This document shows positions 3,988 through 41,528 of a stretch of DNA of 64,000 nucleotides, one piece after another (within the stretch, counting starts at the first letter, position 1; every line of letters begins with the position of its first letter). The translations under genes and the position numbers were made by a program. The notes beneath the pieces are model-generated. The model saw only the letters and a list, made by a program, of their open reading frames with translations, made no database searches and was not told the origin of the DNA. Source of the DNA: Escherichia coli (GTDB lineage: Bacteria; Pseudomonadota; Gammaproteobacteria; Enterobacterales; Enterobacteriaceae); the NCBI RefSeq assembly GCF_048403405.1, contig NZ_CP183129.1. One strand, written 5' to 3'.

Positions 3988-6900
3988 TTACGCCTTCTCA
4001 ATGTTGACTAAGAACGCTTTATATTCCGGCGTTTGCGAGTTTGCATCACCGACATTCGGCGTCAGAGTGTTAGCGATATAACCTTTACGCGCGACACCCT
4101 CAAAGCCCCAGTGGATTGGAATACCCACCGTTTCAACCTGCTGACCGTTTACATTCAGCGGCTTCAGACGGCGCGTTACCACAGCCACCGCGCGGATAAA
4201 GCCACGCTTGCTGGATACGGTGACACGGTCGCCATTGGCGATGCCTTTCGCCGCCGCCAGCGTTTCGCTGATTTCCACAAACTGTTCCGGCTGAGCAATG
4301 GCGTTGAGCAATGCATGCTTAGTCCAGGTGTGGAAGTGCTCGGTCAGACGATAGGTCGTACCCACATACGGGAACTGCTCTTTTTTACCCATCCGCAGCG
4401 CGTCTTGTTCATACAGACGAACGACCGGGTTAGACACCACGTTCGGATGCAGCGGGTTAGTGCCCAGCGGCGTTTCAATTGGCTCGTAGTGTTCCGGGAA
4501 CGGACCTTCCGCCATTTTGTTGATGGCAAACAGGCGTCCCATCCCTTCCGGCTGCATGATAAACGGTCCGGTTAGTGTACCTGGCGCGGCATTGCCGAAG
4601 TCCGGAATATCGTTACCCGTCCACTTGCTGCCGTTCCACTGGATCAGCATCCGTTTCGGATCCCACGGTTTACCGTTGATATCCGCCGAAGCACGGTTGT
4701 AGAGTACGCGACGGTTGAGCGGCCACGCCCAGGCCCATCCCAGCGTATTCCCCAGACCGGACGGGTCGGAGTTATCGCGGTTAGCCATCTGGTTGCCCTG
4801 CTCTGTCCAGCTACCGGTGTAGATCCAGCAAGAAGATGCGGTTGTACCGTCATCACGCAGATGCGCAAAGCTACTCAGCAACTGACCTTTCTTCGCAATC
4901 AGCACGCCATTGGCATCATAGAGATCTTCCAGCGCGTAGCCGTTGTTCTCTTTAGCTACTTCGTCAGATTGCGGTTCGTGCGGCTGCTTGTAGTTCCAGC
5001 TCATCTTCATCAGCGGTTCTACGCCTTTACCACCTTCGGCCTGGTACAGCTCGCGCAGATGATGGTAGATACCCGCCAGAATTTCGCCGTCGTTACGCGC
5101 TTCGCCCGGCGCGTCCTGACCTTTCCAGTGCCACTGCAACCAGCGACCGGAGTTAGCAATAGAACCATCTTCCTCAGCAAAGCAGGTCGAAGGCAGACGG
5201 AATACTTCAGTCTGAATAGACGCAGGATCGACATCGTTCGACTCGCCGTGGTTCTGCCAGAAGGTAGAAGTTTCAGTCACCAGCGGATCGATAACCACCA
5301 TATACTTCAGCTTGCTCAGGCAGCTTACCACTTTGTTTTTGTCCGGGAAGGACGCAACCGGGTTAAAGCCCTGGCAGAAATAACCGGTGACTTTGCCTTC
5401 ATCCATCATGTTGAAATACTTGATGACGTCGTAGGTCTGGTCCCACTTGGGCAGCCAGTCGTAGCCCCAGTTGTTCTCTTTCTGCGCAGCATCGCCGTAG
5501 AAAGATTTCATCAGGCTAACGAAGAACTTCGGATAGTTGCTCCAGTAGTTCACCTGATCAGCCAGCGTCGCTTTCGGCGTGTTCGCTTCCAGATACGACT
5601 GCAAATCAACCTGTTTTTCTGACGGCAGCGTCAGATAACCCGGCAGGCTGGTAGAGAGCAGGCCTAAGTCGGTCAGCCCCTGAATGTTGGAGTGACCACG
5701 CAATGCGTTCACGCCGCCACCGGCCATACCCATGTTACCGAGCAGTAACTGGATCATCGCCATAGTACGGATGTTCTGCGCACCCACGGTGTGCTGCGTC
5801 CAGCCCAGCGCGTAAAGGAAGGTGGTTGTGCGATCCGGTGCGCTGGTGGAGGCCAGCACTTCACACACTTTCAGGAAGTCGGCTTTTGGCGTACCACAGA
5901 TGTTTTCTACTACGTCCGGCGTGTAGCGGGAAACGTGCTCTTTCAGCAAGTTCCACACACAGCGCGGATGAGTCAGTGTTTCATCGCGTTTCGCATAGCC
6001 GTTTTCATCGAACTGATAGTTCCAGGACGATTTATCGTATTGACGTTTTTCAGCGTCGTAGCCGCTGAACAGACCGTCTTCGAAAGCAAAATCATCACGC
6101 ACCAGCAGACTGGCGTTGGTGTAATGCTTAACGTATTCGGCGTTGATTTTGTTGTTTTCGATCAGGTAGCGCAAAACGCCAGACAGGAACGTAATGTCCG
6201 TACCGGAACGAATAGGTGCGTAAATATCCGCTACAGAAGCGGTACGCGTAAAACGGGGATCGACAACGATCAAGGTTGCATCGTTGTTGTTTTTCGCTTC
6301 CATCGCCCAGCGGAAACCGACGGGATGCGCTTCAGCAGCGTTACCGCCCATCACCATTACGACGTTAGCGTTTTTGATATCCACCCAGTGGTTGGTCATC
6401 GCACCGCGACCAAATGTTGGAGCAAGACTTGCTACCGTTGGTCCGTGTCAGACGCGCGCCTGGTTGTCTACCGCCAGCATCCCGAGGGAGCGGGCAAATT
6501 TCTGGGTCAGCATCCCGGTTTCGTTGCTGGCACCGGAGGCACACAGCATACCGGTAGAAAGCCAACGGTTTACCGTTACGCCCTGCTCGTTCTTTTCAAT
6601 AAAGTTAGCGTCACGGTCAGCTTTCATCAGCTTCGCAATACGGGAGAATGCTTCATCCCAGCTAATGCGCTGCCATTTGTCAGAACCTGGCGCACGATAT
6701 TCCGGGTAGCGCAGACGGTTTTCGCTGTTGACGTAATCCAGCAAACCGGCCCCTTTCGGGCACAGCGCACCACGGCTTACCGGATGATCCGGGTCACCTT
6801 CAATGTGATAAATCGCTTCTCTGGCGTTTTTCGCGCCATCACCCAGGCTATACATCAATAGCCCGCAACCTACGGAACAGTATGTGCAGGTGTTACGGAT

Positions 6901-27089: not shown

Positions 27090-27641
27090 CTATCTTCTTA
27101 GCGATGTCTTTCTGGTATCACATTGGATCGGTGCAATTATTTTTCCTTTAATACCCATTATGTTAAGAAATTCAGAAACAGCTGTAATCTCATTGTTTTT
27201 TTCATTCGTCTTGATCTTACAAGGAATCTGACTGTGCATTATTGAGAACACACTAATAACGTGAATCGCTCCCTTGCGACGACTCTTGTCATAAGAGTAC
27301 CGGAGCGTTTTTCCATCAATTGCAATGACGTCTTTATCATCTGAAGAATGGCAGTCAAGCATCCAGTTAATAAAGCACTCATGAAATTTTTCAGGACTGA
27401 TACAGGATACAACTCTGGCAATGGTATCGTGAACAGGAATACCATTATCAAAATCACCATATTGCTTCAAAAAATCGAGATGTGTTTCCCCAAAATCCTC
27501 TATATCTTCCCAGCCTTCTGCACCCGAAATAACGGCACAAATAGTCAACAGTAGAATATCCGATAATTTATGTTCCACTTTCCAGGCTTGTCTGTAATCG
27601 GGGATAATAGAAATATGTCCCATCAATTTTTTAAGTTCCAT
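27090..27641 (-). pseudogene. ISAs1-family (H-repeat, YhhI/YdcC-like) transposase, 3'-truncated fragment
   Basis: N-terminal about 166 aa match the H-rpt protein ([12 protein letters not shown]...[11 protein letters not shown]...IDGKTLR) then the frame diverges and stops; full-length homologs are about 378 aa. Confidence 0.8.
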
Positions 27642-27789
27642 TTTGTTCTCCTTAATTATGTAAGGAGTATTTGATCATGTATACGCAATAAAAAACAGCT
27701 TCAGGTAATGAGGAATATCTCAATTGTTAAACATAAAATGCGAATTGTCTAGTACAAAAAAGCAGCGTTACGTGATCTTTCCGTGGATC

Positions 27790-27912
27790 GTCAAATTGTT
27801 CGAGAGAAAATACCAACATGATGGATTTTACTGTAAAAGTAATGTCGTAGTTTAAAAACTCATCATCCGGTAAAGCCTTGTGGGGCGTGGGCTTTCATAC
27901 TTTTACCCTGAT
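27790..27912 (-). repeat. ISAs1/H-rpt element upstream end (copy 1 of a conserved roughly 120-bp block)
   Basis: tcaaattgttcgagagaaaataccaacatgatgg...cttgtggggcgtgggctttcat...ccctgat is about 85 percent identical to 34529..34650. Confidence 0.65.
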
Positions 27913-28226
27913 GTCTGCTATACGCCGGACACCCTTTACGTAGCATTCGGAATTCACCCGTAAATTTATCACGGCGGTATCACGAAACCTCCGGTTCTGA
28001 TGCCGCTTAGGACTAACGACACGTCAACACAGGTTCGGGTTTATTCATTTCACTGTATCTCATATAATCTGAGCACTCCCCCTGCGCTCGCTACTATGAC
28101 TCTTTACCACAGCAACCGGGGTTGTTTGGGATCGGCTTTCAACAGCAGATCCCGGTGGCTATTGCAAGTAAGTCTACTTTCCACATCAGTGTTACTGACA
28201 CAGAAAATAATGAGTTATGATCCTTG

Positions 28227-28712
28227 TCATATTTTTAATATAGCCCCATGAGCTATAGGATCAAAACCTTCTAACCATGAGGTGTTTTTATCGAATAATG
28301 CACCTGTTATATTTATATCGCCATATCTATCACATAATAAATTAGCGCCACATAAGTCAGCACCAGAAAAATTTGAATCTTTAACGTCTGCATTGCAAAA
28401 GGTTGAATTAGTTAATATAGCACCCTCAAAGTTTGCACCTATTGACCTTGAATTACTAAAGTCACTTCCAGTGAAATCTGAGTTATTAAGAATAGCGTTC
28501 ATCAGAGCCGCATTGCGAAAGACAGCATTTCTAGTTGATGTATGTTGAATCATTACATTTCTTAAATGGGAATTTTCAAATTTCGCCCCATCAAGACAAT
28601 AACCATTGAGGATGGCACGATGTAGATCCATCCCGCTAAAATCATATCCAGCAAGAGTGGTACTATCTATATCAAGAAATTTATTGGTTATTAAAAACGC
28701 GATTCTTATCAT
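28227..28712 (-). CDS. Pentapeptide-repeat protein; putative cognate immunity protein of the adjacent Rhs toxin
   Basis: 161 aa; tandem A(D/N)(L/F)xx pentapeptides ([11 protein letters not shown]..., [33 protein letters not shown]); start ATG overlaps Rhs stop (ATGA) so translationally coupled; AT-rich. Confidence 0.8.
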
Positions 28713-31700
28713 CTATTCCCCCAATCATCTAACTCCGGAAAAATTTGGCTAAACGGATATAGTGGTGCCGATAATGGACGCGTACCTGGCCGCTCAGGAG
28801 GAAGTTTATCACATAACAGACCCGCAACCATCCTGTGATTACCATTAACAATCACATTCCCATCCATATCAACCGGTGGTGCTCCACTACCATCTTCCAG
28901 CATTTGTACGTAGTGAGCTACTACGGGTACTGAGACTTTTTGTTGTACTGTCAACAAGGGACTGTTGGCCACAACCATCCTGATGTTTTCAGGTGTCGTA
29001 GGTAAACATTTAGTCTTCTCTTGACTAAAGGTATCATCCCACAATTTTGTTAAACCCATCACTGCCTGTTGTCTGTATTTATCCATGGGGTCAGCAATCA
29101 ACCAAGATGGACCTGACTGCTCTATGGAATCTTCTCCGGAGAGACCCAACGGATCTATCTTAGTAGTTGGATTCAATGGATACTGATACAGGTTCCATGC
29201 ACCTCTTAGCCCAATGGGATCCTGGGTGATATACCGCCCCTGCAACGGGTCATAGTACCGGTTGCGGTTATAGTACAGCCCCGACTCCTCATCATACTGC
29301 TGCCCCGGCAGACGGTACGGCTGTTGCAGTTGCTGCGCGCTGGTTTCGCCCAGCAGGTTTCCCCACTCGTCATACTCCCCCTGCCACGCCGTTTCCCCTT
29401 CCGGGCTGATGAGCGCCTGCGGCAGCCCCCGGTGGTCGCAGTGGTAAAGATGAAGTGTCCTCTCCGGGATGTATTCCGCCTCCATCTGGTTTTTCATCTG
29501 TTCCGCCGTCAGCCCGCACTGCTGAAGCCATGCCTCACTCTCCGCACTCACCGCACCCGCGCGCAGTTCCCGCTCCAGCCTCCCCAGCATCACCGACAGC
29601 TCCGCCGGTAGCGTCACCCCCGTGTCCTCCTGCAACACCTCCGCCAGACTCCGGTGCCGCGCCTTCGCCTGTTCACCATTCTCTGTTTCGATTCTGATGA
29701 GCGGCGTGAAGCTCCCCGGCTGGTATACCGTCTGGATACGCGTGGTGCCGGTCTGTACCGTCGTCAGCCTGTCACCGTCCCACCCGTACCAGGTCTCCTC
29801 CGGTTTACGCGACAGCGACATCCACCCCGTCAGGTCACGCTCCCGCCGCCACACCCGTTTCCCCGTCCGGCGGCCCAGCGGGTCATAGAGGTAGCGGCTC
29901 TCCACCTGTGGCTCGCCGTGCTGTATCCGCGTGTAGAACACCAGGCGGTGCTGGCTGTCGTAATGGTAGTGGTGCGTCCGCTCGTCGTGCATCCGTATCA
30001 CCCCTTCCGGGATACGGTCCGTCTTCTCCGCCAGCCTGCCGTATTCATCGTAGCGGTAGACATAGTGCGCATCTTCCGTGATGCGGTTATCCGGCCACGC
30101 CGTGAAGGTGCTGTCCGGGTGCAGTTCCGGGTCCGGCAGCCGGTTTCCTGCCGGGTCCGTCGCATACGGGATATCGATATCCAGGTTCGCCGCCGTGGTG
30201 TGAACGCCCGTCAGTCTTCCCGTGTCGCTGTAACGGTACTTCCGGCTCTCCTGCGGGCCGCTGATGCGCACCAGTTGCCCGTTATCGTTCCACGTATACT
30301 CACGGTCAAGCTGCGGAAGGTTCAGGTGCCTGCTCCGGAGCTGCCCTGTGAGGGTGTACGCCGTGGCCTGTTCGTACCCCGCTGTACTGCCCGCCCCGCC
30401 GAAGCTGCGGGCCGTCTCACGGTGCAGCCGGTCCCGCGTGTACTCGACCAGCGGCGTTCCGCCCAGCTTCATCCCCGCAAGATAACCGCTGCCATACGTC
30501 AGCCACTCCACCGGCGGCAGACCGTCCGGCTCCTGACGGGTCGCCAGCCCCTGTTCGCTGTAGACGTGCCTCGTCTCATGCTCCCACAGCATCTCCCCCG
30601 TCTCCTGGTTCTCCACCGTCTGCCGTTCGCCCGTCAGGCGGCCTTTATCGTCATAGCCGTAGTGGACCGCCACACGGTGGCCTTCGCTCAGGTGGCTGAT
30701 TTCTGTCAGCCAGCCGTGGTCGTCATACTGCCACTGCTCCGCCGGGTCGCCGTTCACCGTCCGGTGCGTGATGCGCCCGGCGTCATCGTAGTACCACTGC
30801 GTGACCTGCCCCTCATCCTCGCTGCGGATGAGCTGCCCTGTGGCGCTGTACCGGTAACGCTGTGTCCTGCCGTCAAAGCCGCGCTGCTCCGTCAGCCTGT
30901 CCACCGGGTCATACCGGAACGTGGACTGGCTGCCGTTCTCGTTGGTCAGCACGGTGATGCGCCCGGCGGCGTCATACTCCATGCTGCGCGTCAGTCCGCC
31001 CTGCGTGGTGCTGACGGCCTTTCCCCACGCATCATACTGTGTCTCACTCCGGCTGCCGTTCGGGGCAATGATAGCGGTGAGGTCGCCTGCGGCGCTGTAC
31101 TCATAACGGGTTTCACGTCCCTGCGCATCCTTCTGACTGACCAGTTGACCACGCGGGTTATAACTGCTGTAAGTGCTGATGCCTTCCTCCCGGTGAACCG
31201 CCGTCCTCTGACCGTACCGGTCGTATTCATACCGCGTCGTGTACCCTGAACAGTCCGTAAATGCCTGAAGCTGACCGTACCGGTTTCGCGTTATTCTCCG
31301 CCTCACCCCGGTTCCGTCTTCCACCGCACAGGGCAGGCCACTGCGGGAAGAATCATAAAACCAGCGCGTAATGTTACCGTTGCGCGAGACCTCTTCCGCC
31401 AGCCTGCCCTGACGGTCATATTTCCGGCTGCGGCGCAGCCCGTCCGGGTACGTCACTGACGTCAGTTGCAACTGGTTGTTGTAACCATACCGTACCGTCC
31501 TGCCGTCCGGCAGTATCACTGAAGTCAGCTTTCCCGACGCCATATGCAGCCGGTACTCCGTCCGCCGTCCCGCCGCATCCGTCTGCGCCTTCAGCCTCCC
31601 CGCCTCATCATACTCGCTGCGGGTGATGCTCCCGTCCCCATACTCCTTCTTCACCACCCGCTTCAGGCCGCCCTCGCCCTCCGTGTACAGCACCTCCCGC

Positions 31701-32920
31701 CGGTTCAGGCTGTCCGTGATGGTCACGCGGTCCTGCCCGTACTCAAAGCGGTAGTCCAGCCCCTCCGGGTTGACCTGCTCCGTCACCCGACCGGTATCAT
31801 CATACCGGTAGCGGCTCTCCGGCCTCCCCGCATAATGGTGCGCCACCATCCGCCCGGCGTGCTCCGCATCATAAGTAAACCCGCGCACCTGCGTCCCGCT
31901 GCGGTCATACACCGCCCGCAGTTCTCCGCTGGCCGTGTACGTGTAGCGCGCCAGCGGCGCAGTCGGCAGTTCATCCGGGTATGCCGGGTCGTGTGTCAGC
32001 CATACCGCCTCCAGCCGGATACCGTTATCGGCACCGTACTCTGTACCGGTGGGCAGCGTGTCGGGGAAAAACTGAGAAGAGGAAACAGAACGGGGACTGG
32101 CCGGAGAAGATAAAGAAGACTCGCGCTGTTTACGGAAGGCTTTCGCCCGCTGCGCCTGTGTGGTCAGCGCCAGATGAAAACGGCGGCCCGCGCCGTCCGT
32201 CACCCCCGTCACCGCGCCCGCCGCTTCCCCCTCTGCCGCCCGGTGGAAGGCCAGCGTCCGCCCGAAGCCGTCCACCACGCCCGTCAGCACCCGGTATGCG
32301 GGCGGCTCCGGCGGCAGCACCTCGTCCGCCTCCGGCACCCGCTCCGGCCAGCCGAGTATCCACCACGGCCCCTGAAGGCTGTTTGTCGCCAGGTACACAT
32401 GCGGGCTTAAGCGGAGACTCTCCGGCAGCACCTGCCAGAGCGCGCTTAGCGGCTGCGAACTGTGCTGCTCCGCCACCCCGCCCCTTGCCAGCCAGAACGA
32501 CTCGCTGCGGCTGTAGCTTATCTCGCCGGGAAACAGCGGCTCAAAGTGAATGCTCCTGCCGCCACTGTCGTTGAGTATCAGTTCCCGCTCATGAACCTGT
32601 AAGCGGATATCGAAGGGCGCTTTCCAGCCGGGACCAAACACCCCCACCGGCGCGGGTGTCCTGGTCCGGTAGCTGCTGTAGGCGCGGGAAAGAATAAACG
32701 GCAACGGGCCGGGCAGCGCAAGATCCGTCTCGCCCGGCAGCACCTTCGCACCCAGTAGCGGGTTCACCGGGTTACCCTTCTGCTCCTCCACCGGGCTGTT
32801 GGGACACACCGAGCAGGCCACTCCCGTCGGCGCACCTATCAGCACCCCCGCTGAACCCTGCACAATATCCAGTCCCTTGCGGGTCATATCGCCCTGTCGC
32901 GCCGCCGGTTTTCCGCTCAT
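28709..32920 (-). CDS. Rhs-family polymorphic toxin (PAAR-containing N-terminus, YD-repeat shell, DPLGL-delimited variable C-terminal toxin tip)
   Basis: 1403 aa; N-terminal [13 protein letters not shown]...[12 protein letters not shown]; many YD repeats ([18 protein letters not shown]...); conserved PxxxxDPLGL just before the last 143 aa; GC-rich core, AT-rich tip. Confidence 0.93.
28712..29140 (-). other. Rhs C-terminal variable toxin domain (last 143 aa), family not recognised
   Basis: Sequence after DPLGL: [10 protein letters not shown]...VVAHYVQM...[17 protein letters not shown]...ELDDWGNR; base composition drops relative to the Rhs core. Confidence 0.6.
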
Positions 32921-32939
32921 GGTTTATTCCTTAAATTAT

Positions 32940-33131
32940 TTATGGTTTTATTCTGAGTGCAATCCATACTGATTCATAACCAGTGAATAAGATTTCCCCG
33001 AATAATCTATATAAATTAGCGAAGTCCTCTTCACTAATTAACCGTAAAATCCCGTACCAATGAAATATAAAAATAACCACCCACACAAATTTATTGCAAA
33101 TATTATTTATTATTGTATATACATCATTCAC
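32940..33131 (-). CDS. Hypothetical small hydrophobic protein immediately upstream of Rhs (may be spurious)
   Basis: 63-aa ORF with GTG start in an AT-rich region; ends 17 nt before the Rhs start; no recognisable domain. Confidence 0.2.
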   Translation of the reverse strand: MNDVYTIINNICNKFVWVVIFIFHWYGILRLISEEDFANLYRLFGEILFTGYESVWIALRIKP

Positions 33132-33341
33132 TGAACGTTCTCAAACTGCATACCTTAGAACCATCAATTAAAGCCACAACAAAAAAAATCGATTACTTTA
33201 TGTCGCATGACAAATATGAATTACATATTAATCAACCTTAAAAACAATCATCTCTTATAATTAACAGCATACCATGAGAAACACAAAATCAATTTACCAT
33301 GCATACCAGGAGCATAATTAACCTCTCACCGCAGGGCGAAA

Positions 33342-34478
33342 TCATGAAGGCCCGCAGCCAGCAAGGATTAGAGAAAGGTATTCATTCTTACGTCCTGCCC
33401 GCTTTTGCTTGCGTTTAATACCCGCTTTAAAGCTATTCTCTGCGGTCAGTAAATTCATCGCGATATGTCGACAAACTGCCAGATTTTCTCCCGCTTCTCC
33501 ACGAACAATCTGGCATTCATCTTCCCGCATCCCCATATCAAGTCGCCAGTGCAGTTGATTTTCTACCGACCAGTGTGCTCGTGTTGCTTCCAGGAGTTCT
33601 TTCGCCGTAAGCGTCACCGAACTTATGTAGTAGCGAAGAATACACTTCTCTGATTTCACCGCTGTTTCTCCTTCCTGTCTGCTCGCCAGCACTATTCCTA
33701 TCGTGCTCAGCTCTGACCATTCATAAGCTAAATCACCCAGAGCGGTTAAATCATGGCTCACAATGCAGCATCGTGTATCTTCCCGTCCATGCCCTTTTTC
33801 CTGCGTGCTGTAACTGTCATACCTCTCACCCAGCCACATTGTCGGCGAGTACCCGTTATCAAACGCCTCCGCTAATTTTCCCTGATTTCCTTTCAGCGCC
33901 AGCAGGTAACCGGCTTTCTTTTTCAGAATTTCACGGGCGATTATATGCTGGCAACCCATTGCATCCAGCGTGACCAGACACCCTTTTAATTCCAGCAACT
34001 GGAGCCGTTCCGGGATCGCCGTTATCTCATTCGATTTTGCCCCTGTTTTCACCTGCCCCAAAACCAGACGATTTTCTGCGCTAAAAGCACTGACCCTATG
34101 GATCACGGCATTACGTTTCGATTTATCGTAAGTACCCCGTAATGACTTACCATCAATCGCCACAACAGAGCCTTCAGACAACGTGTGACAGTCCTTCATC
34201 TACTGGATAAAAAGGGGCTGTAATTGTTTTGCTGAAATCATTCCCATCACTCGGGCAATCGTGTGATGGGAGGGGGTGCCATTTTCAAAATCACCATACA
34301 GGCGTAACCATTCCAGATGCTCCTCACCAAAATCAGCAATTTCTTCCCATCCTTCAGCGCCACCGATAATGGCGGTGATCGTCAGAAAAAGGATATCCGC
34401 CAGGCTGTAACTGGTTTTCCAGGACTGGCGATAATCGTGAATAATTGAAATTTGATCCAAAAGGCTTAGTCCGTTCAT
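33342..34478 (-). pseudogene. ISAs1-family (H-repeat) transposase gene inactivated by a single in-frame amber codon
   Basis: ORFs 34200..34478 (92 aa) and 33342..34199 (285 aa) are in the same frame separated only by TAG at 34200..34202; together 378 codons, the length of an intact H-rpt protein; the stop sits where homologs have Trp (…FINW-MRDCH…). Confidence 0.85.
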
Positions 34479-34528
34479 GGTGTGCTATCCATCAAAAAGA
34501 AAGGATAAGATCACACTGAAATAAGATG

Positions 34529-34650
34529 GTCAAATTGATCGAAAAAAAGATCAACATGATGGGTTTTACGATAAAAGTAATGTCGCGATTTAAAAATTCA
34601 TCATTCACCAAAGTCTTGTGGGGCGCGGGCTTTCATGCTTTTTCCCTGAT
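34529..34650 (-). repeat. ISAs1/H-rpt element upstream end (copy 2)
   Basis: Paired with 27790..27912 (see above). Confidence 0.65.
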
Positions 34651-34888
34651 ACGCTACCGCTCTGCCCTGATAACATGATCTGCACGGCGCTATCATATCG
34701 ACATATTTCTCTACATGCGAAAGGATGTTTTATTTTCGGATTATATTAAATTGATATTTCATATAAAAAACGAGATTACATAAATCATATAAATAATTGT
34801 ACCAACTTTAATTACCATTCATAGCAAACAAATGGATGTCCAGTTAACTACGCCAGTGATTTATTAACATTAATCTCCGGCATTATTG

Positions 34889-35495
34889 TTAAATAATGGC
34901 ATTCCTTTTTAGTATTTCTTGTAACGTTGGTATCGGACATACAGCATCAGCAATCGCACTGATATTCGCGGCATTATCTTGAAACCATTCATGCCCCGGT
35001 CCCCATATGCGCATAACGCAGAGATAAGGGTAGCTGATCGCCAAACGCATAAGGTTCAGCAGTGAGCTACGAATTCAACCAGATATAAAACGATTTTCGA
35101 TATTCAATAACATTCTTCTTTAACTGTTCGGGTGCGTCAGGAGCCCAACGCTCAGGGTAATCGGCGAAAGTGAATGTTGGATAGACATTAGCAACCAGCC
35201 AGACCAATAGCCGTTGAAACTGCTGACGTTCGGCGCGCCCAACCGGTGGCGCAAGGTCCGGGCGACGATCGAGAACCATCAATGCAATCGCCGCTGTCTC
35301 CGTCATAATCTCGTCATTTTCCAGCGCCAGTGTCGGAATCTGACACAACGGGTTCAGGGTTTTCAATAACTCGCGTGAGGTTCCCTCGTGGTCAAAACCA
35401 CTGACATCAACGAACTGATAAGGAATATCAGCCAGTGTTAGCATCAGCTCACTGATTGTAGAGCCCCATCCGGGTACGCCATACACCTTAATCAT
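34889..35495 (-). pseudogene. yncG: Glutathione S-transferase homolog, disrupted (in-frame TAG plus a frameshifting deletion)
   Basis: N-terminal 142 aa intact (MIKVYGVPGWGSTISEL...YIWLNS) then TAG at 35067..35069; the GST C-terminal region (...WGPGHEWFQDNAANISAIADAVC...) continues in another frame; total 607 nt, not a multiple of 3. Confidence 0.75.
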
Positions 35496-35761
35496 ATGCC
35501 CCTCACAATCTTTTAAAGATTAAGTGTAGGACAGTACACAGGTTAACCAGCAAAAGGATTTGTCATTTTTTCGTCAGTTGTATTATTCCCCTTCAGGATT
35601 GTAAGGGGATGTTTTGCATCGTTTATCGATAACGGGTAGGATGCTGCGCCGATAGTTTTATACCCATAAAGAATAATGGTGATAACTATCATCGCCAGGA
35701 TGAATAAACATTGTTCATGGCAACTTATATGACTTTTTCATTAAAGCAATCAGGGAGAGCA

Positions 35762-37261
35762 ATGAGTAAACACGACACCGACACTTCAGATCAACACGCC
35801 GCGAAACGCCGCTGGCTTAATGCCCACGAAGAGGGGTATCACAAAGCGATGGGCAATCGCCAGGTACAGATGATCGCCATTGGCGGCGCGATTGGTACGG
35901 GTTTGTTTTTAGGCGCGGGAGCCCGACTGCAAATGGCGGGGCCAGCACTGGCACTGGTCTATTTGATCTGCGGCCTGTTTTCATTTTTTATTCTGCGTGC
36001 ATTGGGTGAGCTGGTGTTACACCGCCCTTCCAGTGGCAGTTTTGTCTCTTATGCCCGTGAGTTTTTAGGAGAGAAAGCCGCTTACGTTGCAGGCTGGATG
36101 TACTTCATCAACTGGGCGATGACGGGGATTGTCGATATTACCGCCGTCGCTCTGTATATGCATTACTGGGGTGCGTTTGGCGGCGTGCCGCAGTGGGTCT
36201 TTGCGCTCGCTGCGCTGACCATCGTTGGCACCATGAATATGATCGGTGTGAAATGGTTTGCCGAGATGGAGTTCTGGTTTGCGCTTATTAAAGTGCTCGC
36301 CATTGTTACCTTTTTGGTCGTGGGTACAGTGTTCCTCGGTAGTGGTCAGCCGCTGGATGGCAACACCACTGGTTTTCATTTAATTACCGATAACGGCGGC
36401 TTCTTCCCCCACGGTTTGCTGCCTGCGCTGGTGTTGATTCAGGGCGTAGTGTTTGCTTTTGCCTCCATTGAAATGGTGGGTACAGCTGCCGGAGAATGTA
36501 AAGATCCGCAGACCATGGTGCCTAAAGCCATTAACAGTGTGATTTGGCGTATTGGCCTGTTTTACGTCGGCTCCGTGGTGTTGCTGGTTATGTTATTGCC
36601 GTGGAGCGCATATCAGGCGGGGCAAAGTCCGTTCGTGACGTTTTTCTCTAAACTGGGTGTGCCATATATCGGCAGCATTATGAACATTGTGGTGCTGACC
36701 GCTGCCCTCTCCAGCCTGAACTCAGGTCTGTACTGCACCGGACGTATTCTGCGCTCAATGGCGATGGGCGGTTCCGCACCGAGTTTTATGGCGAAAATGA
36801 GTCGTCAGCATGTGCCGTATGCCGGGATTCTGGCGACACTGGTTGTGTATGTCGTCGGCGTATTCCTCAACTATCTGGTGCCGTCGCGCGTATTTGAGAT
36901 TGTGTTGAACTTCGCGTCGCTGGGAATCATCGCCTCATGGGCGTTTATCATCGTGTGCCAGATGCGCCTGCGTAAAGCGATTAAAGAAGGCAAAGCCGCG
37001 GATGTCAGTTTTAAACTGCCTGGCGCGCCCTTCACTTCCTGGCTGACATTACTGTTTTTGCTGAGCGTCCTGGTGCTGATGGCGTTCGATTACCCGAACG
37101 GGACTTATACCATCGCGGCGCTGCCGATTATCGGTATTCTGCTGGTTATAGGCTGGTTTGGTGTGCGCAAACGCGTTGCTGAAATTCACAGCACTGCGCC
37201 AGTCGTCGAGGAAGATGAAGAACAACAGGAAATTGTGTTTAAGCCTGAAACGGCGAGTTAA
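35762..37261 (+). CDS. ansP: L-asparagine permease (APC family)
   Basis: 499 aa from MSKHDTDTSDQHAAKRRW within ORF 35711..37261; amino acid permease signature. Confidence 0.93.
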   Translation: MSKHDTDTSDQHAAKRRWLNAHEEGYHKAMGNRQVQMIAIGGAIGTGLFLGAGARLQMAGPALALVYLICGLFSFFILRALGELVLHRPSSGSFVSYAREFLGEKAAYVAGWMYFINWAMTGIVDITAVALYMHYWGAFGGVPQWVFALAALTIVGTMNMIGVKWFAEMEFWFALIKVLAIVTFLVVGTVFLGSGQPLDGNTTGFHLITDNGGFFPHGLLPALVLIQGVVFAFASIEMVGTAAGECKDPQTMVPKAINSVIWRIGLFYVGSVVLLVMLLPWSAYQAGQSPFVTFFSKLGVPYIGSIMNIVVLTAALSSLNSGLYCTGRILRSMAMGGSAPSFMAKMSRQHVPYAGILATLVVYVVGVFLNYLVPSRVFEIVLNFASLGIIASWAFIIVCQMRLRKAIKEGKAADVSFKLPGAPFTSWLTLLFLLSVLVLMAFDYPNGTYTIAALPIIGILLVIGWFGVRKRVAEIHSTAPVVEEDEEQQEIVFKPETAS

Positions 37262-40813: not shown

Positions 40814-41528
40814 TTGTGCACAGAAAACCCCCAGCTAGGCTGGGGGTTCCGGAAAGCTTTCAGCTTTAAGCCAGTTATTAAAACCCCTTTTGATTTGTTA
40901 AAACACCTTGCGGTCTGGCAACTGCAAGTGTCAAACAAGAAATCAAAAGGGGGTCCCAATGGGGAACGAAAAGAGCTTAGCGCACACCCGATGGAACTGT
41001 AAATATCACATAGTTTTTGCGCCAAAATACCGAAGACAGGTGTTCTACAGAGAGAAGCGTAGAGCAATAGGCAGTATTTTGAGAAAGCTGTGTGAGTGGA
41101 AAAGTGTACGGATTCTGGAAGCTGAATGCTGTGCAGATCATATCCATATGCTTGTGGAGATCCCGCCCAAAATGAGCGTATCCGGCTTTATGGGATATCT
41201 GAAAGGGAAAAGCAGTCTGATGCTTTACGAGCAGTTTGGTGATTTGAAATTCAAATACAGGAACAGGGAGTTCTGGTGCAGAGGGTACTACGTCGATACG
41301 GTGGGTAAGAACACGGCGAAGATACAGGATTACATAAAGCACCAGCTTGAAGAGGATAAAATGGGAGAGCAGTTATCGATTCCCTATCCGGGCAGCCCGT
41401 TTACGGGCCGTAAGTAACGAAGTTGGATGCAAATGTCAGATCGTGTGCGCCTGTTAGGGCGCGGCTGGTAAGAGAGCCTTATAGGCGCATTTGAAAAACC
41501 TCCGGCTATGCCGGAGGATATTTATTTA
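40814..41528 (+). mobile_element. IS200-like insertion sequence, copy B (inverted relative to copy A)
   Basis: Near-identical to the reverse complement of 1680..2394 with a few substitutions; boundaries +/-3 bp. Confidence 0.85.
40959..41417 (+). CDS. tnpA: IS200/IS605 family Y1 transposase TnpA
   Basis: 152 aa from MGNEKSLAHTRWNCKYHIVFAPKYRR; differs from copy A at a few residues (e.g. D3N, LAFYG to QVFYR). Confidence 0.9.
   Translation: MGNEKSLAHTRWNCKYHIVFAPKYRRQVFYREKRRAIGSILRKLCEWKSVRILEAECCADHIHMLVEIPPKMSVSGFMGYLKGKSSLMLYEQFGDLKFKYRNREFWCRGYYVDTVGKNTAKIQDYIKHQLEEDKMGEQLSIPYPGSPFTGRK

Follow-up and report, generated by a model that had tools for sequence, protein, structure and literature searches.

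In the literature retrieved, the yncG gene of Escherichia coli is described only as encoding a putative GST. Over-expression of yncG gives a five-fold higher MIC for H2O2 (PMC8228696), while cell-free-expressed YncG was without GST activity in an earlier study, as cited in that paper. The gene has also been listed as a flank of Rhs locus 6 (PMC2935791). In K-12, YncG (WP_000598857.1, 205 aa) belongs to the GST superfamily, and two beta-class proteins, 1PMT (Proteus mirabilis GST B1-1) and 1A0F (E. coli GST), are homologous to it across nearly the whole 205-aa length. YncG aligns to 1PMT over residues 3-190 and to 1A0F over residues 6-200, with E-values of 1e-13 and 1e-11, respectively. Both are distant paralogues of YncG, not orthologues, and share with it a T/S-x-x-D motif at the point where helix alpha6 begins; phmmer places T157-L-V-D160 of YncG opposite F-T-v-a-D of 1PMT, at the start of alpha6.

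We analysed a contiguous stretch of 64,000 nt from an E. coli genome (NZ_CP183129.1; hereafter the window), in which the yncG locus lies on the minus strand. In every genome examined the gene adjoins ansP, from which it is divergently transcribed, at the edge of an rhsE-type variable region. The copy in the window is very probably a lineage-specific dead relic of this non-essential GST-superfamily gene, retained beside ansP at the margin of an rhsE-type island. For comparison we used the genomes of CFSAN061763, LR-58-2, a K-12-like genome, K-12 (WP_000598857.1), PT62 and NRZ14408. The features on which the analysis draws are as follows.

34889..35495, minus strand: yncG pseudogene locus, 607 nt compared with 618 nt in intact alleles
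35067..35495, minus strand: 5′ ORF with an ATG start, 142 codons plus TAG (ORF listing)
35067..35069, minus strand: amber codon 143 (TAG; CTA on the plus strand), from CAG (Gln) via C->T
35026..35032, minus strand: deletion junction at codons 156-160, net 11 nt lost (alignments)
34889..35050, minus strand: out-of-frame 3′ remnant, with the original TAA at 34889..34891 (ORF listing)
33342..34478, minus strand: ISAs1-family transposase gene with an in-frame TAG at 34200..34202 (ORFs; "internal stop" in PGAP)

The initial annotation had read the GST-like frame as ending at TAG 35067..35069 after 142 codons, and the ORF listing agrees. It had also proposed that the C-terminal homology picks up in another frame; the second minus-strand ORF, 34889..35050 (translation ...RIWGPGHEWFQDNAANISAIADAVCPIPTLQEILKRNAII), does contain the C-terminal YncG homology (...WGPGHEWFQDNAANISAIADAVC...) and is off the frame of the 5′ ORF, because the distance between the two (35067-34889 = 178) is no multiple of 3. 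Intact yncG is 618 nt (205 aa) in K-12, LR-58-2 and PT62, and the out-of-frame deletion of about 11 nt suggested for the 607-nt locus comes to exactly 11 nt net when aligned with K-12 yncG. Opposite the window TAG the alignments give Gln in all cases, encoded by CAA in LR-58-2 and by CAG in PT62, NRZ14408 and K-12, for which the initial annotation had named a Gln codon. When both lesions are repaired in silico (+11 nt, T->C), the window yncG becomes an uninterrupted 205-aa frame.

The bases that K-12 and LR-58-2 have and the window lacks are AACGCTGGTGG. The nearest intact haplotype is the PT62 class, which reads ...CTAACCCTGGTGGACTGTTATC... where the window reads ...CTACCCTTATC... (longer context: ...CAGCTAACCCTGGTGGACTGTTATC... 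in the PT62 class and ...CAGCTACCCTTATC... in the window). From this haplotype the junction can be derived either by an 11-nt deletion plus TG->CC, or by a 1-nt deletion (A) and a 10-nt deletion (GGTGGACTGT) with zero substitutions. On these alignments the two derivations are equally valid, and the net 11-nt loss and the frameshift are identical under both. The codons lost at the junction are those for T157-L-V-D160.

In the 142-aa product, Pfam finds GST N-terminal domains above their cut-offs at residues 2-79 (GST_N_2, 34.3 bits with a cut-off of 25; GST_N_3, 30.2 with a cut-off of 22; GST_N, 23.7 with a cut-off of 20.9). The 5′ ORF covers this thioredoxin-like N-terminal domain and extends into the first part of the C-terminal one; the contiguous C-terminal alpha-helical domain, and with it a product of ~205 aa, is absent, the frame ending at codon 143. 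A Pfam search of the 53-aa 3′ remnant found nothing. Since the GST_C matches are below the cut-offs even for intact K-12 YncG, the loss of the C-terminal domain is argued here from the PDB alignments and from knowledge of the GST fold. The S/T-x-x-D N-capping box is important for GST folding, and a GST without alpha6-alpha8 is not expected to fold. Residues 143-205 of the intact protein align within the 1PMT/1A0F fold, which argues that neither the 142-aa product nor one of ~168 aa should be a functional GST. On this basis, we infer that the window yncG is a non-functional relic.

The pseudogene is already annotated in RefSeq: CFSAN061763 (NZ_CP042899.1) carries the identical 607 nt (100%) under locus tag CA897_RS12350, with the PGAP label pseudogene, "frameshifted; internal stop". 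New here are the sequence in which the two lesions arose, the recombination boundary inside the gene and the independent inactivations of yncG in other lineages. Of 5,426 complete E. coli genomes, 4,708 were matched in a megablast search with the region, and the matched feature is yncG; 4,542 genomes match at least 80% of the locus, with identities of roughly 87-100% among the matches listed. Within the same 5,426 genomes the 607-nt allele is found at 99% identity or more in 148 records and its 3′ 187 nt, at the same threshold, in 141, while an 80-mer across both lesion sites shows 156 records spanning the deletion junction. Both lesions are present in about 140-150 of these genomes, such that roughly 2.6-2.9% carry the allele, and the carriers come from many laboratories, hosts and countries. 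Two of them, 28Eco12 and 266917_2, are ST38 (PMC6963479), and the names of many others resemble the OXA-48/244 ST38 surveillance series, which suggests that these may be ST38 too. The allele marks a lineage that includes the ST38 clone.

Five records contain the deletion and all of the 3′ substitutions but still have CAG at codon 143: NRZ14408 (two assemblies), OZ547043, OW967178 and GMF054. In NRZ14408, PGAP describes yncG as "frameshifted" only. Because these records have the deletion yet keep CAG, parsimony across 4-5 genomes indicates that the deletion is the older lesion and that the amber struck a second time, after the gene had died, although reversion of the amber or recombination might in principle also account for the same records. 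The amber codon of the neighbouring ISAs1 transposase gene is also present in NRZ14408 and therefore predates that of yncG. The papers retrieved that mention NRZ14408 do not give its sequence type.

Codons 128-205 of the repaired gene differ from PT62 by six nonsynonymous changes (L136F, E153D, T167I, Q191P, K194T and V198I) and two synonymous ones (Nei-Gojobori), giving a dN/dS of 0.83, compared with 0.10-0.16 for the same codons in pairs of intact alleles. Six or more of 8 changes would be nonsynonymous with a probability of 0.006-0.03 under the constraint seen in intact pairs and of 0.76 under neutrality; this contrast is based on 8 substitutions only, 2 of them common to the MS1170 pseudogene allele, and depends on the indel alignment. 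The downstream frame holds a Pro and other radical replacements. The pattern is suggestive, on small numbers, of neutral-like evolution in the 3′ third and of constraint having been relaxed after inactivation. High divergence of the 3′ third is by itself no sign of decay, since intact alleles also diverge strongly there (dS of 0.19-0.42, versus 0.05-0.07 in the 5′ part). Among the 5,426 complete genomes the intact allele closest to the repaired 3′ 218 nt is 95.0% identical, and no intact ancestor was found in that set. A search with the repaired 205-aa protein returned cluster representatives at 92-93% identity, the clusters being built at 90% identity and hence blind to closer members.

The initial annotation had pointed to an amber-split transposase 0.9 kb away as a mark of a decaying neighbourhood. 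The transposase gene is as described, with its TAG (34200..34202) lying 867 nt from the yncG amber. The idea of a decaying neighbourhood holds at the margin of the RHS/ISAs1 island and fails for the core neighbours, which are intact. Of the 44 features annotated across 50 kb of the genome with the identical locus, 4 are pseudogenes or fragments; yncG, the amber ISAs1 and a fragment of ISAs1 account for three of these, all at the margins of a single RHS island. The intact neighbours include the 1,403-aa RHS core gene and the pentapeptide-repeat gene downstream of it, ansP, yncE, pqqU and narUZHWI. The ISAs1 variant occurs as a single copy in 142-145 of the 5,426 genomes only, at the yncG locus wherever checked, and carries the in-frame TAG in those genomes whose annotation was read. 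Its matches to other E. coli ISAs1 copies are partial and only ~68% identical, and it looks like a dead, lineage-restricted IS.

Relative to LR-58-2 and MS1170, the island itself is an insertion: a block of ~6.9 kb at 27783..34648 that comprises the pentapeptide gene, the RHS core gene and ISAs1. In both of those genomes, 152 nt matching window 27631..27782 directly adjoin the sequence downstream of yncG. A short TTTCC is present at both junctions of the block, and ~45 nt just inside its left junction resemble window ~34525..34575. Several further details were seen in this part of the window. A second ISAs1 fragment, truncated and frameshifted, lies at the opposite end of the RHS block at ~27091..27641 (17145-17695 in the record of the identical genome), and PGAP annotates a fragment of an LRR protein ~17 kb further left in that genome. 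On the other side, the identical genome has an intact IS200C tnpA annotated between pqqU and mcbR, corresponding to window ~40959..41417 (31014-31472 in the same record).

Alignment with the intact LR-58-2 allele reveals that the window yncG is a mosaic. Its first 381 nt are identical to that allele, and divergence between the two genomes is 0-0.7% across yncE, ansP, the intergenic region and 5′ yncG, as opposed to ~16% across the last third of yncG and 6% in the sequence beyond it. The identity of the 5′ 381 nt to an intact allele places an apparent recombination breakpoint within the gene, at ~35090..35115, which is about 65-95 nt upstream of the deletion. We suggest that the core side has probably been homogenised with the species pool, and that the broken 3′ end has remained linked to the island.

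How these data are read depends on whether the lesions are real and whether anything useful is still made from the locus. Were they sequencing or assembly artefacts, the real gene would be an intact 205-aa yncG. No supporting point was found for this, and it is exceedingly improbable: many complete genomes, each sequenced independently, contain the same 607 nt (100% identity), the deletion lies outside any homopolymer, and recurrence of the lesions in more than 140 independent complete assemblies argues against error of either kind. A full-length protein might in principle still be produced by programmed recoding, in which read-through of the amber is combined with a ribosomal frameshift. We regard this as so improbable as to be negligible, given that two separate events would be needed, that a sister allele is without the amber, and that 11 nt of conserved coding sequence have been lost with no slippery site created. 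The downstream frame has, moreover, taken on its Pro and other radical replacements, and the deletion is found in about 150 genomes only, compared with more than 4,000 for the intact 618-nt form. No point in favour of recoding was found, and an Rfam scan of 32500..36500 found nothing. The gene could also be truncated but not dead, with the 142-aa fragment (GST_N and about two helices) still made and its function kept or gained. The start codon and about 27 nt upstream are unchanged in the alignment, so the product could still be made, its GST_N domains score above the Pfam cut-offs, and there are 0 lineage-specific substitutions in the first 381 nt versus 8 in the last 212 nt (P = 2e-4 if uniform). 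The clean 5′ part is, however, the intact allele of an unrelated genome and runs into ansP and yncE at 0-0.7% divergence, and such continuation of the 5′ identity is what a recombination tract leaves behind, as opposed to selection acting on the fragment. Since folding is not expected without alpha6-alpha8, since the amber as a second hit shortens the product further, and since other lineages stop at codon 59, we consider a functional fragment very unlikely.

More weight attaches to a different history for the same dead gene, in which its 3′ end arrived already broken, together with the ISAs1-RHS island, by recombination from an unsampled donor. The 3′ third, the spacer, the amber ISAs1 and the RHS core gene are almost identical between NRZ14408 and the window, despite differences of 1.4-1.8% in ansP and yncE; the low identity of the ISAs1 copy to other E. 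coli ISAs1 elements (about 68%) and the absence of an intact form of the 3′ haplotype from 5,426 genomes point the same way. An ancestral island whose flanks were later replaced would yield the same pattern, however, and arrival in a broken state is a possibility that we hold to be less likely than decay in place. The preferred reading is that the gene was broken within the lineage and that its 5′ part was exchanged afterwards.

The deletion site coincides with a Chi sequence in other alleles. The 11 nt absent from the window read AAC-GCTGGTGG in alleles of the K-12 type and include the Chi octamer GCTGGTGG on the sense strand of yncG. This octamer is present at the site in K-12 and LR-58-2, as well as in about 2,585 genomes that share the K-12-type 80-mer. 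PT62, the closest of the intact haplotypes, reads CCTGGTGG here and is without canonical Chi, MS1170 reads CTTGGTGG, and the window has no Chi at the deletion site. The window as a whole contains 9 Chi sites in 64 kb, compared with 1.9 expected by shuffling, with none on either strand between 20505 and 42964, a span of ~22 kb around the RHS island and yncG. If the junction arose by the derivation with a 10-nt deletion, the end of that deletion lies some 5 nt beyond the Chi-like octamer, on its 3′ side.

Within ~20 nt of the octamer lie three further yncG lesions of independent origin, one in LR-28 and one in each of two draft genomes. They were traced to the DNA from truncated YncG proteins (P0107, P0094 and P0105), a protein list that reveals lesions only between roughly codons 155 and 185 and so brings a detection bias. 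The draft genome L010 (P0094) has a 1-nt deletion directly 3′ of GCTGGTGG, and the draft genome L011 (P0105) has an IS3-family insertion inside the octamer, between GCTGGT and GG. The latter insertion (GCA_023581345.1, 2985-4245) is apparently flanked by a 15-nt target duplication (GCAACTAACGCTGGT), which is unusually long for an IS3-family element. Exchange through RecBCD, Chi and RecA is expected to start on the 5′ side of Chi and would, by extension, do so at the yncG locus; the breakpoint in the window is 65-95 nt on the 5′ side of Chi. Taken together, these positions might suggest that RecBCD processing at Chi makes the site a local hotspot for small lesions and for the ends of recombination tracts. 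We think this unlikely: the +T at codon 59, which is the most frequent of the other yncG lesions, is far from Chi, the 3′ third of LR-28 shows further breakpoints unrelated to Chi, and the PT62 haplotype is without the canonical octamer. Two of the three extra lesions (the P0094 and P0105 types) are, in addition, absent from the complete genomes, and the P0107 type is present in one only. The co-location with Chi is best treated as a curiosity, and it would gain importance only with confirmation from a systematic survey.

The sequence comparisons are consistent with the following history. In the ancestor of the ST38-type genomes and a small sister group, codons 156-160 would have lost a net 11 nt, an event that removed the start of alpha6 in the GST C-terminal domain and left a protein of ~168 aa with a nonsense tail. 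The 3′ third of the dead gene would then have drifted neutrally. In the sub-lineage of the window, a C->T change would have turned Gln143 (CAG) into an amber codon and cut the ORF to 142 codons. Homologous recombination with intact alleles would have continued to refresh ansP and the 5′ 381 nt of yncG, leaving the breakpoint about 65-95 nt upstream of the deletion.

Loss of yncG is not confined to this lineage. At least 381 complete genomes carry a +T insertion by which codon 59 becomes TAA; SCU-122 (1501-2101 of its record) combines this +T allele with an 18-nt deletion, and MS1170 (4001-4618 of its record) combines it with a 1-nt deletion, with PGAP flagging yncG as "frameshifted" in both. 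LR-28 carries an independent 1-nt frameshift (CTAACCC->CTACCC), for which PGAP gives the same flag, and about 820 of the 5,426 complete genomes (about 15%) give no yncG match. From these comparisons yncG appears to be dispensable in nature and to have been broken at least three times independently, which bears on how the reported H2O2-resistance phenotype of its over-expression should be read. For the ST38-type group the present allele adds one lineage-marking pseudogene, which matters little in itself, although the stepwise damage, with every carrier having the deletion and most having the amber as well, could be of modest use for phylogenetic marking within that group.

Set beside the described alleles, the window yncG is the same as that of CFSAN061763, in the gene itself and in its position relative to ansP and ISAs1. 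The only difference is in the AT-rich ISAs1-yncG spacer, which is 1 base longer in CFSAN061763; in the window this spacer occupies 34479..34699, and the missing base is deduced from coordinate offsets. The +T alleles of MS1170 and SCU-122 affect the same gene, likewise through small indels, but differ from the window allele in both event and background. The LR-28 lesion falls at exactly the 5′ edge of the window lesion and is again a separate event on a separate background. The K-12 locus is 93.5% identical to the window in nucleotide sequence, and the N-terminal 142 residues differ at few positions only; K-12 departs from the window in having CAG at codon 143, the extra 11 nt including Chi and an intact C-terminus, and in being followed downstream of yncG by yncH and rhsE, where the window has the ISAs1-RHS block.
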